Below are positions 1,887 through 23,191 of a stretch of 24,000 bases of DNA, piece after piece; position 1 is the stretch's first letter; the number at the start of each line of letters is the position of its first letter. The notes below the pieces were generated by a model. That model was not told the origin of the DNA. It made no database searches and saw only the letters and a list, made by a program, of their open reading frames with translations. The position numbers and the translations under genes were made by a program. Source of the DNA: Sulfurisphaera javensis (GTDB lineage: Archaea > Thermoproteota > Thermoprotei_A > Sulfolobales > Sulfolobaceae); assembly GCF_041154675.1 (NCBI RefSeq), contig NZ_AP031322.1, forward strand, positions 1,711,812-1,735,811. Direction: 5' to 3'.

Positions 1887-3236
1887 TTAACTCACCCCCT
1901 TAGCTTTGGGAATTACGGGTTTACCTCTTCTTCTAGATAAGAAATACGAACCAACACCTACAACTATTCCAGCACCCACAGCTGCTGCTAATAACGTTGT
2001 TGAAGGTAATGTTGGTGCATTCGGAGGAGCATAGAATGGTTCATATAAATCTGGAAATCCTGGAGCAGTACAAGCTATACATACTCCCCCTCTCGTACAT
2101 CCCCCAACTCCTCCAACCCAGCCTAGACGCGGTGCTGGACTATTTGCTTCTGTTCCTTTACATCCTAAACTATAAGTGCATTGCGGATCTCCGAAGTTTT
2201 TAGCAAAAATTCCTTGAGCGAAAAATCCAGCTCTGGGACAGTTCTGATGAGTCTCATTTCCATAAAAGAATTTTGGTCTATTAAATATATCTAAGTAAGT
2301 AGAAGGGGCAGGAGCTAATCCTCTCGCATATAATACTCCGGCTACTAATGTTCTCATAATCCAATCTCCAGCTGGTGGATCAGCAGCTATAGCAACAATT
2401 GGCTGTCCTAATTTACTTAACCAATGATAACTTGGTCCAGGGTAAGCAGTATTATAAGGAGAGTTTGTAACAGAGTATATATCCTCATCAATTACTTGCT
2501 CTCCTCTGAAATAACCTAGATCTTTTTCATATACCTCATGGATGTAAGCAGGAAAACCTAGAATTCCTCTGTAAGGATCATCTAACATTCCCATCACATA
2601 TGTAGGAGATCTGTAACCTAAACCGTTTGTAGTTGCAGGAATTCCACCATAGGTTGCACAAGCACCAGTAGCGTAAACTAATGCAGCTTTTTTCATTAAG
2701 TTAAACACGAACTCATCGCATAGCAATACATGTCCAGATGGAGTTCTCCCAGCAGAACACCAGAAAGAACCAGATGGCTTCTCGTAATATAAGCCAAACT
2801 CATCAAACATTGTACCTTCAACAACTAATACATAAGGATCAAAAACACCAGCTAATGCAGCTTCCATAGTTGGATATGCCATATCGTCTTGTGGCATTAA
2901 AATTGGATGGTACACTAGATTTATGTTTCCTAGGTTTGTTATTGATGGAGCCCTTAAGGTTATCGGTTGTAAATTAAATGTGACTTGTGTCACTACGTCT
3001 TCAACAGCAGGATTCATTGCATCTATGAAAGCTATTGTATTTCCTCCACACCATCCGTTTCCTGTCCAGATTATGTTTATTGGATCTGATAGAGCGTCAT
3101 TAGCCATGTTAAATAAGTCCTTCCATGTTAGTCCCTTTTCTATCATCCATGTTGTAAGACCAGTAATCCCAGCTAATTTCATGAAATCTCTTCTACTAAT
3201 CCCTATCTTAACTTGTTTTGGCTTCGGTTCCTTCAC
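1887..3236 (-). CDS. [NiFe]-hydrogenase small subunit, hydrogenase A, with twin-arginine (Tat) signal and C-terminal transmembrane anchor
   Basis: GTG start preceded by AGGGGAT (SD-like). N-terminal SRRDFMKLAG Tat motif. Small-subunit motifs IIWTGNGWCGGNT, ATGACATYGG, HQNCPR, CTYSLGCKG and CTRGGVCIAC. Hydrophobic C-terminal stretch LLAAAVGAGIVVGVGSYFL followed by RRRGK. Lies directly upstream of the large subunit. Confidence 0.88.
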   Translation of the reverse strand: MKEPKPKQVKIGISRRDFMKLAGITGLTTWMIEKGLTWKDLFNMANDALSDPINIIWTGNGWCGGNTIAFIDAMNPAVEDVVTQVTFNLQPITLRAPSITNLGNINLVYHPILMPQDDMAYPTMEAALAGVFDPYVLVVEGTMFDEFGLYYEKPSGSFWCSAGRTPSGHVLLCDEFVFNLMKKAALVYATGACATYGGIPATTNGLGYRSPTYVMGMLDDPYRGILGFPAYIHEVYEKDLGYFRGEQVIDEDIYSVTNSPYNTAYPGPSYHWLSKLGQPIVAIAADPPAGDWIMRTLVAGVLYARGLAPAPSTYLDIFNRPKFFYGNETHQNCPRAGFFAQGIFAKNFGDPQCTYSLGCKGTEANSPAPRLGWVGGVGGCTRGGVCIACTAPGFPDLYEPFYAPPNAPTLPSTTLLAAAVGAGIVVGVGSYFLSRRRGKPVIPKAKGVS

Positions 3237-8851: not shown

Positions 8852-10018
8852 ATGAGTTTATATGATTTAGAGATTATTGACCTTGATGTCTTCGTTAAAG
8901 AGGGAAAAGTAGTTAAAGCAAAATGTTCTGGTAATAAAATTAGAGGATTTGAGAAGTCTTTTATAGGAAAGGAAGCTAAAATATTTTATGAAATTTTACC
9001 TAGAGTTTTAGCAACGTGTAGTCAATCCCACTTATATGTATATCTACAACCTCATATGAATACTCCAATAACTGAAATACTTATGACCCTCGAAATAGTT
9101 GATAGCCATTTAAAGCATCCCTATGCCTATTGGTTTCCTCATTTAATAAAAGATGAGCAGTTCTCTTTTCCATCCGGTGATAAATTTAAAAGAGTTAGTT
9201 TAATTTCAAGAAAGATAAAAGAATTAATGGAAAAGATAGGAGGAAGATGGCCTCATATTGACTATATAAAAGAAAATAAAGAGATAAGATTAAGAAAAGA
9301 TGATATAAAAGATATTACAAGTTTCATAGAGAATGAATTATTGGGAATGAGTATTGAAGATTTTTTAAGCGTAAAAAACATAGAGGATTTTTCTGGCGAT
9401 ATGAAGTTATTGATTGAAAAAGGAATTGAAGCATTAGACTGGAATACTGGTCTTAGAGATCATTTAGTCGTAGGATATCCATTTTCTGGTAATTTTGATT
9501 ATAATAAAATAGAGGATAAAGGTATTGAAGTACTCTATGATGGTAAAAAAGTAGAAGTAGGGCCTTTGGCTCAAGCATTAACTTTTGATCAACTAGTTAA
9601 AAATTATTTTAATAAATATGGACCTTCTCCTCTTTTAAGAGAAATATCTAGAGTGAAAGTCCTTGCAAAATTATTAAATAATATTAGAGATACTGAGTTA
9701 AAAAGTGAGAAATTCGAACCTCAAGACGGACATTTTATTTCATTTGCTGAATCAATAAGAGGGTCACTAATTCATGATTACATAATAAAAGATGGTAAGA
9801 TTTTATCGTATAAAATTATTCAACCAACAACATTTATAGCATCACCTAATGGTGCTTTAGAAAAATCAGTGGTAGGATTACATATTAAAAATCCTAAAGA
9901 TCCAGTTGAATTAGCATTAACTGTTTCTTCATTGGATACATGCTTCGTAACAAGAGTTAAAGTATTTGATGATAATAATAATCTATTAACAACAAAAAGA
10001 ATTGGAGGTTTTTGCTAA
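8852..10018 (+). CDS. [NiFe]-hydrogenase large-subunit-like protein lacking half of the active-site ligands (candidate HupK/HoxV-type maturation scaffold)
   Basis: 388 aa. [31 protein letters not shown] aligns to RGxE..L.GR...RxCGxCxxxH with the first Cys replaced by Leu. GGRWPH and [27 protein letters not shown] align to GGQWPH and APRGALGHWIVIKGGKILNYQIVTPTQ of the 13279..14808 large subunit. C-terminal [11 protein letters not shown] replaces DPCxxCxxH (second Cys to Thr, His to Lys). The N-terminal RxEGH motif is absent. Confidence 0.75.
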
Positions 10019-13278: not shown

Positions 13279-14808
13279 CTAAATAAGCTTTAGCATGTGC
13301 ACATTACATACCATACAAGCATCATGAGACCTAACTATATGATAAACCTCAATTGGATTATCTACATTAGAAACTTCAGTACCTATTAAAGCTAAAGGTA
13401 AATGACTCTTATTACCTAAAGGATCCTCTGGACCCATGTTAATTTGAGTAGGAGTCACAATTTGATAATTTAAGATCTTACCACCTTTAATTACTATCCA
13501 ATGACCTAATGCACCTCTTGGAGCTTCAACTAACCCATATCCTTTTCCTTCAATAACATCGTTCGGTTTCTTATAAGTAGGCTTACCGAACTTAAAATTA
13601 TTTAACTCATTAATCATAAGTTCATTATAAATTATTATTCTTATTATCCTGGCAATTATTCTTGAAAGTACACTTGGACCAATCTTATCGACCATATCAA
13701 AGACTATAGGATTTTTTGAAATAGTTAACATTGCTAATGCGCCAACTTCTGGTGCCAATAACTTACCATCATATTTATATCTAAAGCACTTAGTCAATGA
13801 ATATTTTCTTTTATCATCTGTTAAGTTGGGATTTGTCTCACCTTGAAAAGGATGTAAACCAATATTATCTCCTAAAGTATATGTGTAATATGAAGAATTA
13901 ACGAATTCTAGTATATTCTCTTGATTAAATTCCTTAAATTCCTTCTCTTTTACAAAGAAAATACCAGGTTTAAAATATTTCTTCCTTGGAACTCCTACAT
14001 ATTCTTCTGATGGTAAATGACCATAACTGAGGAAAATTCCAGAACCATATCCCAATTTATGCCAATTAGCTTCTAATCCAAATTCGATTATTTTTGATAA
14101 GTCTCCTTGTTTATAATCTTCAGCCCATTGTAATAAGTCTTTATAACTTTTAACGGTGCTCATAAATTGCTCTACTGGTCCTCCTAAGATAGTTTTTTCT
14201 AAATAATTTTGTTTAATATTTATCAATATTGATATTGCTTTATTTATCTCATTAGGTAAAGGATCTGATGTGACCCCTCCAGGAATTATAGCTGAACCAT
14301 GAGGCCATTGACCTCCAAAAATAGCATAAACTTCAGTATACTTTTTTGACCATCTAAAACATTCTTTGTATGATGAACCATTAATAGGGGCCCATCTCTT
14401 TAAAGCTTCATCAAAAATCGCATAATCTTGGTATTTTCTGTTCACAACATCAATTAAAAACATAAAATAAGTATGCCTTAAATCATTTTGACAACTTTCA
14501 GCCATACTCAATACATTTCTTATCCTTACAGCATTTTCTGGGACTTCAGCATTATAAATCATATCTAATGCTGAGGCTGATGCATATAAATGAGAGGCTC
14601 CACATATACCACAGACTCTTGGGGTTATAACTAAAGCGTCTAAAGGATTTTTACCTTTAAGAATTATTTCTATACCTCTAAATAATCTTGAGATTATTTT
14701 AGCATCAACAACTTTATTCTTTTCAAACTTTACCTCAACATCTAAATCTCCTTCAACTCTATTAAATGGAGAAATAATTTTATTACTCAAGCCACTCCAC
14801 CTTTTCAT
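13279..14808 (-). CDS. [NiFe]-hydrogenase large subunit, hydrogenase B
   Basis: 509 aa. Motifs NRVEGDLDV, FRGIEIILKGK...PRVCGICGASH (L1), GGQWPHGSAIIPGG and EAPRGALGHW. C-terminal HDACMVCNVH (L2 variant with DAC instead of DPC) is followed by only MLKLI. An alternative TTG start at 14790 follows GGTGGAG. Confidence 0.92.
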   Translation of the reverse strand: MKRWSGLSNKIISPFNRVEGDLDVEVKFEKNKVVDAKIISRLFRGIEIILKGKNPLDALVITPRVCGICGASHLYASASALDMIYNAEVPENAVRIRNVLSMAESCQNDLRHTYFMFLIDVVNRKYQDYAIFDEALKRWAPINGSSYKECFRWSKKYTEVYAIFGGQWPHGSAIIPGGVTSDPLPNEINKAISILINIKQNYLEKTILGGPVEQFMSTVKSYKDLLQWAEDYKQGDLSKIIEFGLEANWHKLGYGSGIFLSYGHLPSEEYVGVPRKKYFKPGIFFVKEKEFKEFNQENILEFVNSSYYTYTLGDNIGLHPFQGETNPNLTDDKRKYSLTKCFRYKYDGKLLAPEVGALAMLTISKNPIVFDMVDKIGPSVLSRIIARIIRIIIYNELMINELNNFKFGKPTYKKPNDVIEGKGYGLVEAPRGALGHWIVIKGGKILNYQIVTPTQINMGPEDPLGNKSHLPLALIGTEVSNVDNPIEVYHIVRSHDACMVCNVHMLKLI

Positions 14809-15757
14809 CTTTCTTGTACAAAGGTTTCACTAAGAAATTAGGCGCAGAAGCTCTAGCTATAGCTGAGTAAGTAGTATAAGCACCTCTACTCACTCCTAAG
14901 GGTAACCTCTTCGGTAAACCACTTCTGTTTTTTTCAGTTACGAAAAAGTTAAATGTAGGGAAATCAAACTCTGTACACCCAAAACATGGAGTACCAACTC
15001 TAGTCTTACTACTCTGATTATTCCAGAGAATTATATTACATGGACTTTTAGTGAATGAACCCCTACAACCTAAGTCAAAATATAAACATCCTTCTCTATG
15101 TCCGAACTCTTTTAAAGATATTTTATATGAGAAGTATAAACTCCTTGGACAACCAAATTGTGTAGTTGTACTATAAATTATTTTTAATCTTTGGTACTCA
15201 TCTAAATCCTCTTCAGATAAGCTATCTGTCAATATTTTAGATAATGTTGTAGTAATCCACTCTGGATGAGCTGGACATCCAGGAATATTTATTACTGGAA
15301 AATTCTTTCTAGATCTGTAATCTTTCCCTAAAAATCCTCCTTTTTCTTTTTTATGAAATTATAAACCAGTAGATTCTGTTGGATTTGGCTCAGAAGCCGG
15401 AACACCACCAAAACTTGCACAATCTCCAACAGCTACAACATAATTTGCTACTTTCGAAATCTCATAAACCCAGTCCTTCATAGGCTTTCCAGCAAAAATA
15501 TTAAACTTTCCAGTACCATTTGGACCTAAAACTACAGTACCTTCAAATATAAATACGTCTAACTGAATTTTCTCTTTAATAATTTGTTGCAAAATTTCTC
15601 TTACTTTATCACCAGTTTCTAAAGATAATGATGGATGCCATAATAACTTTGCATTATACATTTCGAAGAACTCTAATACATCTGGATTTTCTGCATTAAG
15701 AAATGAAAGTGTGTTACCACCACATGCTCCTCCTTGAAGCCATAAAATTGTTCTCAT
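14783..15757 (-). pseudogene. [NiFe]-hydrogenase small subunit, hydrogenase B (no Tat signal), interrupted by one in-frame TAA at 15359-15361
   Basis: ORF fragments 15359..15757 and 14783..15232 share one frame. Translation across the gap reads ...NPTESTGL*FHKKEKGGFLGKDYRSRKNFPVINIPGCPAHPEWITTTLSKIL.... The N-terminal part has WLQGGACGGNT and VGDCASFGG. The C-terminal part has GCPR, CLYFDLGCRG, SPCN and TPCFGCTEFDFP. Confidence 0.85.
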
Positions 15758-15778
15758 TATTTAACTTTATATAATTAA

Positions 15779-15793
15779 AGTATAAAACTTTAT
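15779..15793 (-). promoter_or_regulatory. BRE/TATA-like element (minus strand ATAAAGTTTTATACT) for the hydrogenase B operon, inside a 44-bp divergent intergenic region
   Basis: Centred about 28 nt upstream of the ATG at 15757. The opposite-strand box CTTTATATAA (about 15766-15775) lies about 27 nt upstream of the ATG at 15802. Confidence 0.4.
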
Positions 15794-15801
15794 ATATATA
15801 T

Positions 15802-16329
15802 ATGAAAATAGAGGAATTATTTGCAGGAATTATACTTCCTCTTATCGTTATACCAGAAGAATTTTTTGTTTACTCTGTCATACATAATTTTACAGCAATT
15901 TACGTTGTTGGTATAATAGTAATTATAGGTGAAATAATATCTGCATTTCTGGCTAAAATTCTGACTAAGAAAAAATTAAAAATAGAAATTAACAAAGGCC
16001 TAGTCTTTCTAGTCCTTATAATACCTTTATCATTTTTCCCCGGGTTAACACAAACTTCTTCCCCTTCTTTTTATACTATCTTAATACCGGCTGGAATTGT
16101 TGGAGGTATTTGTGAAGAAATAATTTACAGAGGTTATGTTTTATCTGATACAACTAGTATATTTATCCAAGGAATTTTATGGGGGATTCTTCATATATTT
16201 GACGGTTTACTATTCTTCCTATGGACAATTGTTATAGGTATAATTTTTGGTTTCATAGCTAAACGATATGGAATTTTACCTACAATGTTAATTCATGTAA
16301 TTTCAAATATTCTTCGAATTTTATTGTAA
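15802..16329 (+). CDS. CPBP-family (CAAX-type) intramembrane metalloprotease
   Basis: 175-aa membrane protein with CEEIIYRGYV (EExxxR motif), GILHIFDG and LIHVISNI (HxxxN/D motif). Confidence 0.75.
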   Translation: MKIEELFAGIILPLIVIPEEFFVYSVIHNFTAIYVVGIIVIIGEIISAFLAKILTKKKLKIEINKGLVFLVLIIPLSFFPGLTQTSSPSFYTILIPAGIVGGICEEIIYRGYVLSDTTSIFIQGILWGILHIFDGLLFFLWTIVIGIIFGFIAKRYGILPTMLIHVISNILRILL

Positions 16330-17475: not shown

Positions 17476-17742
17476 ATGGTGAGTAAAGTGGGAAAACTTG
17501 TATGTTTAATATGTGAACATGAAGAGGAAGTACCTAAACATTGTGGAGTTGAAATGGATTATATTCTAAAAGGAAATTTTAGAAAAATAGAGTATTTAAA
17601 ATGTAAGATCTGTGGAGTAGAAAGGGAAGTCCCTAGGCATTGTGGTGTTCCTATGCTCTATATTGACGAAGATTATTTCCCTGTAAGTAAGTTAACTAAA
17701 TCAGAAATAGAGGAGATGAAAAAGCTTTATTCAGGTGAGTGA
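17476..17742 (+). CDS. Small Cys/His-rich protein with two tandem CxxC-x9-HCG-x2-M modules (putative metal-binding hydrogenase accessory protein)
   Basis: The ATG directly abuts the hypE stop, and the stop lies 1 nt before the hypC ATG. Internal duplication: VCLICEHEEEVPKHCGVEMDYI and KCKICGVEREVPRHCGVPMLYI. Confidence 0.6.
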   Translation: MVSKVGKLVCLICEHEEEVPKHCGVEMDYILKGNFRKIEYLKCKICGVEREVPRHCGVPMLYIDEDYFPVSKLTKSEIEEMKKLYSGE

Positions 17743-20637: not shown

Positions 20638-21126
20638 CTATTTATCTTCCAAAATATTTAGACATTTCTCTTTTACCAGTTTTTCAATATCTGAAACCTC
20701 TAAATTTATTTTTACACCAAATTTCTCCATAAAAAGTTTAAATATAGGAAATAATTTTACCATTCTATTTATACATTCTTCCGATAATCTAAAGTTAATA
20801 TCTACAATATATGGCTTACAAGCAACTACATAAAATTTTTTATCCTCATATAGTTTTAAGACTAGATTTAATCCTAAATCATGTAATGAAAAATCATAAT
20901 CTGAACTCCTTTTCACCTCATATATCCCATACTCTGAATCAATATTAGCTATATCTAAAAGGACTACTATATCATATTTATTTATATCAATATTAAGTAA
21001 ATTTGATGTATCAAGATCTATTACCTCAGCTCCTAGTGTGTTATCTTTAATAATTTCAGCTAAACAAGAACCAAAACCATCATCTCCCATCAACCTATTT
21101 CCAACACCTACAATAGCCACTTTCAT
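20638..21126 (-). CDS. Hydrogenase maturation endopeptidase (HybD/HoxM/HycI family)
   Basis: 162 aa. [24 protein letters not shown] (GxGNxxxxDDGxG) and the later SLHDLG His motif. Overlaps the stop of the large subunit by 4 nt. Confidence 0.9.
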
Positions 21127-22646
21127 AATAATTTCTCTAATATATGGTCTTTAGTAATTATATGAACTGCGCATGCTGAACAAGGATCAAAACTTCTAAT
21201 AATTCTTAAAGCATCTAAGCCACTAACCTTTTCAACCTCTTCAGTAACCTTTTGTCCTATTATGCTCTCTTCTACTGGGCCACCATTACTACTAAAGTTC
21301 CTATCCGTGGGAGTAATTATTTGATATCGAGATATAATCCCATCCTTTTGAAGTATCCAATGAGCATTTCCACCTCTAGGAGCATCATGAGCCCCAACAG
21401 CTAAATTAGTCCCTTTACCTTTATATTGATTAATTTCCTTACTCTCCTCTAAATTCATAATATAGTCGTAAAGTAAACCTACAGTAAACATTCTTGCAAA
21501 AAGCCTTTCTACTACATCATTGGCTATATAATCCCATTCATAGTTAAATGCCTTTGGCTTTCCCCTTTGTAATCGATATGAGTAAAGCCTGGCAATATCA
21601 CCAGTAGTAGGCATAAACTCCTCTGAAGAGAAAACTTGTTTGACAGTAAATAAATAATTACCAGACAATTGCTTTAATTTAGTCTCTTTATTCCATGGAT
21701 GATGCAAATCAACCTTATTTCCTAAAGGATCTTCAGATACTGTTTGCTCCCAATTGTCATAGGCAGTTCCTTCAGTGTAAACTCTCACACCCAAAAGAAT
21801 ATCAATTAAATTTCTACTTAGAAGCTCTCCTTTACGTATTAACGCTGGAGGAATAAATCTCTTTATACCCCAATTATTCATATCTTCATAATTAGCATTA
21901 TAATCATGTGAATCTAAGAGTCCGTAAGTTATGAAATTTGCACCTAGATCTTTATAAATATTTTTATAAAATTCTCTTAATTCCGCAGTTACATAGAATA
22001 ACTTTTCTATATCCTTCTCTATTTCTTTAAGTCCTTGCTTAATCTTTGTAATAACATCTTTATCCCTAATCTCAATACCTCCGACTTTTAAAGAAAGTGG
22101 TTGAGGATATCTTAACCATATTAATGTTGCTAAGTCCCTTAATTTCGTTGATATCTTTAGTGCCGTTTTGTAAATTTCCCCTTTGTAATATAAATTATCC
22201 ATTATGTCTGAAACTTTAGTATATCCATGAATATCACGATATATACTATAAGTATTCAAAGCTTTTTCAAATTGAGACGGAGTAAAAGATGCAACTATAG
22301 GTGAAGAGAAATCAATACCTTCAAATATAAACGCAACAGTCACATTATTATACATAATATCTGCTAAAGCATAGGCAACATTTCTTAAATCAATCACACC
22401 AGAAGAAGGGTAAATACCAGAAGCCATTTCTAAAGCTTCAATGGAAACTAAAGTATGAGTAGCACCACAAACACCACATATTTTCCCAGCAATATTAGGT
22501 GCTAAGTTCAGCTTCTTATTCTTTAAAAGTAACTCAAATCCTCTGAACATTGTTATTTTAACTTTGGCAAAAGTATAATATCCATTCTCTATCTTGGTTT
22601 CAATTCCTAAATGACCTTCAACTCTAGTAATTGGCTCTATCTTCAT
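21123..22646 (-). CDS. [NiFe]-hydrogenase large subunit, hydrogenase C
   Basis: 507 aa. Motifs [21 protein letters not shown]...[11 protein letters not shown] (L1) and [11 protein letters not shown]-terminal [10 protein letters not shown] is followed by a 12-aa tail, [12 protein letters not shown]. Confidence 0.92.
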
Positions 22647-22648
22647 TG

Positions 22649-23191
22649 CTAACCACCAGAAGTTAAAGCATAGTAAATTGCTGCAATCATCATTTTATCC
22701 GAAGCTGGACAACCAGGCACTTCATAAACTCTTTTACCTAAAAATTCGCTTACTCCTACGTAACCTAATTCCCTTATAATTCCCCCATTTACAGCACAAG
22801 AACCTACAGCAACAATTGCCTTAGCTTTTTCAGCTAATTTTTTGATTAACTCATTACAAGTCATATCTCCAACATAACAAAGTCCATCTTTATCCTTTGG
22901 AATCGCTCCTTCTATCACTAGAACAAAATCTTTTTGTGAAAGAATTTCGTCTAAGTATTCCTTCCCACATTTCTCTTCACAAATGTTAGAGTAAAGTTTG
23001 AACGGAGAAGAATGAAAGAAAAGATTTTCCAAAGACTTACAGCCACTTTTCAGTATATTTACACTTTCACCAGAACATGATTGAGCCTCAATCCAAACTA
23101 TATTACTCTTTAATACTTTCTCTAACGCTTCACAATAATCCATAATAACTTTTTTACATAAAAAAATATATGTTTTTCTGAAGACTTTCAT
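22649..23191 (-). CDS. [NiFe]-hydrogenase small subunit, hydrogenase C; short form with only the proximal-cluster domain and no Tat signal
   Basis: Motifs [22 protein letters not shown] and EVPGCPAS. No medial or distal cluster region is present. The start is more likely the ATG at 23143 (MDYCEALEK), which has CATATATTTTTTTA about 25 nt upstream, giving about 164 aa. Confidence 0.85.

Follow-up and report, generated by a model that had tools for sequence, protein, structure and literature searches.

A premature stop at a conserved glutamine codon in the small-subunit gene of a Huc-like [NiFe] hydrogenase of Sulfurisphaera javensis KD-1T

Huc, the group 2a [NiFe] hydrogenase of Mycobacterium smegmatis, carries three iron-sulphur (Fe-S) clusters, all of them [3Fe-4S] (PMC10017518), and its small subunit HucS is found in structures 7UTD, 7UUR, 7UUS and 8DQV. 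The Sulfolobales type, of which Acidianus brierleyi and Metallosphaera provide examples, is called group 2e or Hys (PMC11018855). Another Sulfolobales enzyme gene, fucA1 for the alpha-L-fucosidase of Saccharolobus solfataricus, appears as two open reading frames (ORFs), and its expression through a programmed −1 frameshift at a slippery heptamer has been demonstrated (PMC1616953, PMC8211752). Here we report on a Sulfurisphaera javensis gene which likewise appears as two ORFs. It lies in a window of 24,000 nucleotides from strain KD-1T (contig NZ_AP031322.1, positions 1,711,812 to 1,735,811; coordinates below are those of the window), whose GC content of 32% is that of the genome (31.7%). When sequenced positions 14783..15757 of the minus strand were read and translated, one 324-codon gene for a [NiFe]-hydrogenase small subunit was obtained, with an in-frame TAA. 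We consider, with a probability of about 0.88, that the KD-1T culture carries a genuine and very recent nonsense mutation disabling a group-2e, Huc-like [NiFe] hydrogenase.

The read-through translation, with an X at the stop, matched full-length small subunits of 320-326 residues with 100% coverage, the best hit having an E value of 2.5e-197 and 86% identity. Small subunits of Sulfurisphaera ohwakuensis, Saccharolobus shibatae, Stygiolobus, Acidianus and Metallosphaera spanned 67-86% identity, the matches below the best one (67-83%) including Saccharolobus shibatae, Stygiolobus caldivivus, 'Candidatus Acidianus copahuensis' and Metallosphaera yellowstonensis; bacterial uptake-hydrogenase small subunits, group-2a-like, matched at ~52-57%. 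Pfam found Oxidored_q6 (PF01058, 100.2 bits) at residues 12-174, spanning the stop, and NiFe_hyd_SSU_C (PF14720, 75.2 bits) at residues 195-270. Because both the homology and the Oxidored_q6 domain run across the stop, the two ORFs are one interrupted gene and no chance pair, and the full-length matches and the domains confirm the hydrogenase small subunit that an earlier, sequence-only reading of this DNA had recognised.

The closest solved structure is that of HucS (7UTD/7UUR, E = 1e-111). Residues 3-309 could be aligned with it, the motif STGLQFHK(K/R)EKGGFLG is common to both, and nine cysteines are shared, matching the three [3Fe-4S] clusters of HucS. These nine Fe-S cysteines (12, 113, 161, 203, 224, 231, 240, 258 and 261) were each kept in 122-123 of 123 homologues, and all nine codons are present in the S. 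javensis gene. The S. javensis protein differs from HucS in being archaeal, ~55% identical, with another C-terminal tail, and truncated by the stop; no HucM-like stalk subunit was identified at its locus. With group 2e HysS, on the other hand, the gene shares Oxidored_q6 and NiFe_hyd_SSU_C, without an N-terminal signal extension, and it likewise stands directly upstream of, and overlaps, a large-subunit gene of ~503 codons near hyp genes. The difference is the TAA at codon 133, where every orthologue seen was uninterrupted. To judge from its sequence, the gene codes for the small subunit, the Fe-S protein relaying electrons, in a Huc-like [NiFe] hydrogenase of group 2. Among such enzymes, the archaeal group-2e (Hys) type would be a sister to mycobacterial Huc; this putative subgroup label was given by best hits and by the description of the Sulfolobales that carry the enzyme (PMC11018855), not by a tree.

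From the ATG at 15757, the frame runs through 132 sense codons, ends in NPTESTGL and meets the TAA at 15361..15359. This N-terminal, hysS-like fragment (15359..15757, minus strand, codons 1-132 plus the premature stop) holds only Cys12 and Cys113. The rest of the frame (14783..15358, minus strand) comprises codons 134-324 and the natural stop. It continues as FHKKEKGGFLGKDYRSRKNFPVINIPGCPAHPEW past the TAA, includes the segments FHKKEKGGFLGK and NFPVINIPGCPAHPEWITTTLSK downstream of residue 133, has no further stop until the natural TAA at 14783, and contains Cys161, 203, 224, 231, 240, 258 and 261, that is, seven of the nine cluster cysteines. The ORFs 15359..15757 (132 residues) and 14783..15232 (149 residues, TTG start) belong to one frame, as had been proposed from the 525 nt separating their upper ends, which are exactly 175 codons. 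Cys161, in the INIPGCP motif and invariant in 123 of 123 homologues, is encoded by a TGT at 15277..15275 on the minus strand (15275..15277), between the stop and the TTG at 15232; its stranded position had been seen correctly. A scan for in-frame start codons returned no ATG, GTG or TTG from the TAA to TTG 15232, again as had been stated, and the only near-cognate codons in this interval were AAG at 15307, ATA at 15292, ATT at 15286, ATT at 15256 and ATA at 15235. The first restart codon therein, TTG 15232, is 42 codons past the stop and beyond Cys161. Both pieces are already in the public record: the 132-residue piece is an exact match to SJAV_19030 (BFH73959.1) and the 149-residue piece corresponds to SJAV_19020 (BFH73958.1), each being labelled 'hypothetical protein', with no pseudogene flag.

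The codon that preceded the TAA could be read from relatives. The stop column held Gln in 21 of 21 aligned sequences and then in 123 of 123 archaeal and bacterial homologues, the bacterial group-2a-like ones included, and HucS reads GLQFHKREKGGFLG at this position. In a codon alignment with the three nearest loci, the orthologues had CAA (L052, an S. ohwakuensis-like Logan contig), CAG (L053, S. shibatae CP077713) and CAA (L002, Sulfolobaceae archaeon RB850M), which answers which sense codon Sulfolobales orthologues use here. Because relatives have CAA or CAG at codon 133, the lesion reads as a single C>T transition of the coding strand at window position 15361, turning CAA (Gln133) into the TAA of 15359..15361 (minus strand). 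In a hyperthermophile, G:C>A:T transitions caused by deamination of cytosine are expected to dominate among spontaneous changes.

The rest of the gene was undamaged. Private substitutions at otherwise invariant columns numbered 0, among 22 sequences and also among 17 of the Sulfolobales type, compared to 0-10 in intact homologues. Nei-Gojobori ratios of non-synonymous to synonymous rates (dN/dS) against relatives were 0.07-0.11 upstream of the stop and ~0.03 downstream, values to be taken as upper-bound indications, with synonymous sites near saturation. Zero private changes at conserved columns together with the low dN/dS after the stop rule out a long-standing pseudogene. The large subunit had 12 private changes, all conservative, for 6-14 in close relatives, and the flanking hypF, hypE, hypC, hypD, HxlR-type regulator and other hydrogenase genes agreed in length with their counterparts in L052 and L053. 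Since the gene is otherwise undamaged, large subunit and flanking genes included, the stop appears very recent relative to the divergence from any available relative. No wild-type S. javensis allele was found among the homologues, none of which exceeded 86% identity; the 90% clusters containing the two fragments had no full-length javensis-type member; no match in the Joint Genome Institute (JGI) metagenomes was obtained for an exact 32-nt pattern that left the mutated base as N; and a scan of genome contigs returned no conspecific. Because a single DNA preparation gave rise to both data sets, the assemblies carry no date for the mutation, which may have arisen in the hot spring or in heterotrophic laboratory culture.

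As for the consequence, translation from ATG 15757 would end after 132 residues, with two of the nine cluster cysteines, and this fragment would be unable to build any complete cluster. The seven cysteines downstream, Cys161 (proximal) and all medial and distal cluster ligands, would not be reached from any start codon. The claim that neither fragment alone could give a functional subunit thus holds, with seven cysteines past the stop and the first restart beyond Cys161. That Cys161 is the fourth ligand of the proximal cluster, as had also been said, is correct for canonical group-1 enzymes but does not carry over to this nine-Cys, HucS-like protein: as its nine cysteines are shared with HucS and its three [3Fe-4S] clusters, Cys161 is probably one of three ligands. 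An intact large subunit without the Fe-S relay could not pass electrons from H2 to an acceptor, and because the large subunit would have no electron outlet, this hydrogenase is expected to be inactive and functionally lost, in keeping with established knowledge of [NiFe] hydrogenases. Members of the small-subunit family are single polypeptides of ~320 residues, which the TAA at codon 133 precludes here. What was found is the picture of a pseudogene: a stop at a conserved sense codon one base change away, no restart and no alternative decoding.

An error of sequencing or assembly, the true codon being CAA and the gene intact, is very unlikely. It would look alike, as a single-base lesion in an otherwise pristine gene; but the finished genome is a short-read-first Unicycler hybrid assembly of NovaSeq (482x) and MinION R9 reads (raw data DRR537969 and DRR537970; AP031322; PMC11636327), with the Illumina reads serving both as its basis and for its polishing, and the same TAA is present in it and in an independent de novo Logan assembly of DRR537970 (contig L001, 1,044 bp). 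L001 is identical to window 14929..15974 save for two A6>A5 single-base deletions, one of which lies 8 nt past the TAA and alone would shift the frame. These two homopolymer deletions are Nanopore-type errors and no real variation. From this error profile and the shortness of the contig, we infer that DRR537970 is the Oxford Nanopore (ONT) run, so that two chemistries and two assemblers probably agree on the TAA. A look-up counted the exact 132-residue product on one more contig, of 20-50 kb, the sequence of which was not displayed. Look-ups of the 149-residue fragment, of HypE and of the 509-residue large-subunit ORF among raw-read assemblies gave no record, and the independent assembly support therefore consists of L001 and the counted contig. 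Substitution errors are moreover very rare at such depth, typical ONT and Illumina errors being homopolymer indels, while here T stands for C (context TTA-C-AAT) and no base is gained or lost. A leaky UAA, decoded at low frequency by a near-cognate tRNA, most plausibly tRNA-Gln, perhaps in a regulated way, and leaving some wild-type high-affinity hydrogenase, is just as improbable. Work outside archaea counts Gln among the residues that are misinserted at UAA, and with Gln as the ancestral residue here, readthrough could yield a protein of fully wild-type sequence. The frame beyond the stop is free of damage, which recency explains equally well. A modest hairpin is predicted 21 nt downstream (dG = −19.3 kcal/mol at 37 C, z = −1.8), but it is weak and AU-rich and would be unstable at the growth temperature of 80-85 C. 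In favour of such decoding, the A. brierleyi group-2e enzyme is normally expressed at very low levels (PMC11018855). A programmed site is nevertheless unsupported, the stop at codon 133 occurring in 0 of 123 homologues and in no JGI metagenome contig: a degenerate DNA pattern with TAR at the site had 0 matches in 241 million JGI metagenome records, although it recovers the window itself and its CAR version matches 21 of 55 fetched loci. Of 20 long ORFs in the window, 12 moreover end in TAA, more than in any other stop, and readthrough in archaea has been demonstrated for UGA (selenocysteine) and UAG (pyrrolysine) only (PMC8211752). Recoding to selenocysteine or pyrrolysine was rejected, the codon being TAA and not TGA or TAG; no Rfam element was matched within 14500..16000, and no tRNA gene was found within the window. 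We know of no archaeal precedent for UAA decoding. Background near-cognate misreading that reinserts Gln would amount to noise and not to a mechanism. That UAA decoding by a near-cognate tRNA-Gln is useful, KD-1T keeping by its low rate a trickle of Huc-like, possibly high-affinity, hydrogenase, is more doubtful still; if true, no earlier case of functional UAA readthrough would be on record for a crenarchaeon.

A rescue by frameshifting was likewise rejected, as the sequence-only reading had anticipated: before and after the stop the homology follows frame 0, and the other two frames are closed by a TAA at 15353 (~2 codons past the stop) and a TAG at 15330 (~10 codons past). In this the locus departs from fucA1, since the interruption in S. 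javensis is an in-frame UAA with the frame unchanged and is not conserved in relatives. A natural split, with the two pieces made separately and assembling into a working small subunit, can hardly be entertained. GenBank does annotate two coding sequences, and conserved sequence is kept in both pieces, but a restart at TTG 15232, the first canonical start past the stop, would leave FHKKEKGG...INIPGCPAHPEW untranslated, a segment that varies little or not at all among homologues; a downstream restart was ruled out for this reason of position. The break moreover falls inside the Oxidored_q6 domain, and each of the 123 homologues is one chain, about 286-332 residues long, with none split or stopped at codon 133, so that a search for an orthologue working as two polypeptides came out negative. 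Several points weigh against a disabling nonsense mutation all the same. The evidence consists of assemblies, so that some reads may still carry the wild-type allele, as a minority, or the call at this base may be systematically wrong; the ONT assignment of DRR537970 comes from homopolymer errors and not from metadata; the one S. javensis genome available is that of KD-1T (AP031322), and the mutation may not be fixed in the species; and low-level near-cognate readthrough reinserting Gln is compatible with the sequence. Among the possibilities listed at the outset (recent nonsense mutation, artefact, readthrough), the evidence favours the nonsense mutation, through the conserved Gln, the CAA and CAG codons of relatives, the undamaged gene and the second assembly. 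We conclude that an ordinary mutation has disrupted a member of a well-known enzyme family at this locus, and that no new decoding mechanism is involved.

The cognate large-subunit gene, hysL-like (13279..14808, minus strand; PF00374, 258 bits), is adjacent to the small-subunit gene and intact, as had been noted, with both Ni-Fe ligand motifs present (RVCGICGASH at residue 58 and DACMVCNVH at residue 490). Its longest ORF starts at ATG 14808 and has 509 codons, a product not on record in the protein collection; the start consistent with orthologues is TTG 14790, giving 503 residues and an 8-nt overlap with the small-subunit stop. Because a GGTGG Shine-Dalgarno-like motif stands just upstream of TTG 14790, the large subunit may still be translated. 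On the other side of the small-subunit gene, a divergent, AT-rich intergenic segment of 44 nt (15758..15801) separates hysS from an Rce1-like gene, and TATA-like sequences (TTTATA and TTATATAAA) were read ~20-30 nt upstream of the hysS ATG. This segment is a probable promoter, and for that reason the broken hysS is probably still transcribed.

Lesions were also seen in hydrogenase genes of relatives. In a syntenic metagenomic relative, represented by L054 (7517-8520; ENA ERZ1684502 NODE_132, coverage 287) and by L055 (Logan SRR10484890), the same small-subunit gene has a 1-nt deletion in an A-run. In L054, the run near the 3' end reads GAG-AAAAT, versus GAGAAAAAC, and the product is cut to 286 residues, while the conserved tail NRSGIPKKLPLGVSRG...KVDWLE can still be read after the frame change. 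This deletion is either a second, independent and apparently recent lesion, or a homopolymer error common to assemblies of what is probably one sample. In S. shibatae CP077713 (L053:1796-3598), the counterpart of the third hydrogenase of the window is in pieces, a 57-residue Oxidored_q6 piece and NiFeSe_Hases pieces of 169 and 354 residues, and transposase genes lie near it. Seemingly recurrent hydrogenase lesions in Sulfolobaceae suggest a quick turnover of hydrogenase sets and frequent relaxed selection.

The window holds further hydrogenase genes. A small subunit of 449 residues is encoded at 1887..3236 (minus strand); its Oxidored_q6 match extends over residues 63-298 against a 128-column profile, which implies a predicted insertion of ~110 residues within the domain. 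Its large subunit lies outside the window, and at the equivalent S. shibatae locus Isp-like and Fer4 genes stand between small and large subunits. A third hydrogenase locus (20638..23191, minus strand) encodes a small subunit of 180 residues and a large subunit of 507 residues, paired at 21123..23191, and a protein of 162 residues. The 180-residue small subunit is minimal, having Oxidored_q6 only and no C-terminal cluster domain, and the S. shibatae counterpart of the 162-residue protein gave a weak HycI endopeptidase match. At 8852..10018 (plus strand) is a large-subunit-like protein of 388 residues, the last ~100 of which match NiFeSe_Hases (54 bits). It is unusually short, is found at the same place in L052 (387 residues), and shares the last 4 nt of its gene with the end of hypF. 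The counterpart in L054 (13228-14397) was called as pieces of 127 and 213 residues, which suggests that it may be disrupted too. Between hypE and hypC, a protein of 88 residues (17476..17742, plus strand) contains two CxxC...HCG copies, KLVCLICEHEEEVPKHCGVEMDY and YLKCKICGVEREVPRHCGVPMLY. It is kept at 84-85 residues in L052-L054, had no Pfam family above threshold, and may be a small metal-binding maturation factor.

S. javensis is reported to grow on S0 and H2 (PMC8551704), and the remaining hydrogenase loci and the shared hyp maturation genes are intact, which fits such growth; the hyp genes stay intact because the other hydrogenase loci remain and the organism grows with S0 and H2. If the mutation arose during heterotrophic culture, the type strain may differ from the natural population. 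Hydrogenase surveys usually classify by the large subunit alone. A census made in this way would score KD-1T as having an intact group-2e enzyme, and as a candidate for Huc-like uptake of atmospheric H2, which would be an overcount. The main value of the finding is therefore a caution for annotation and for metabolic inference.

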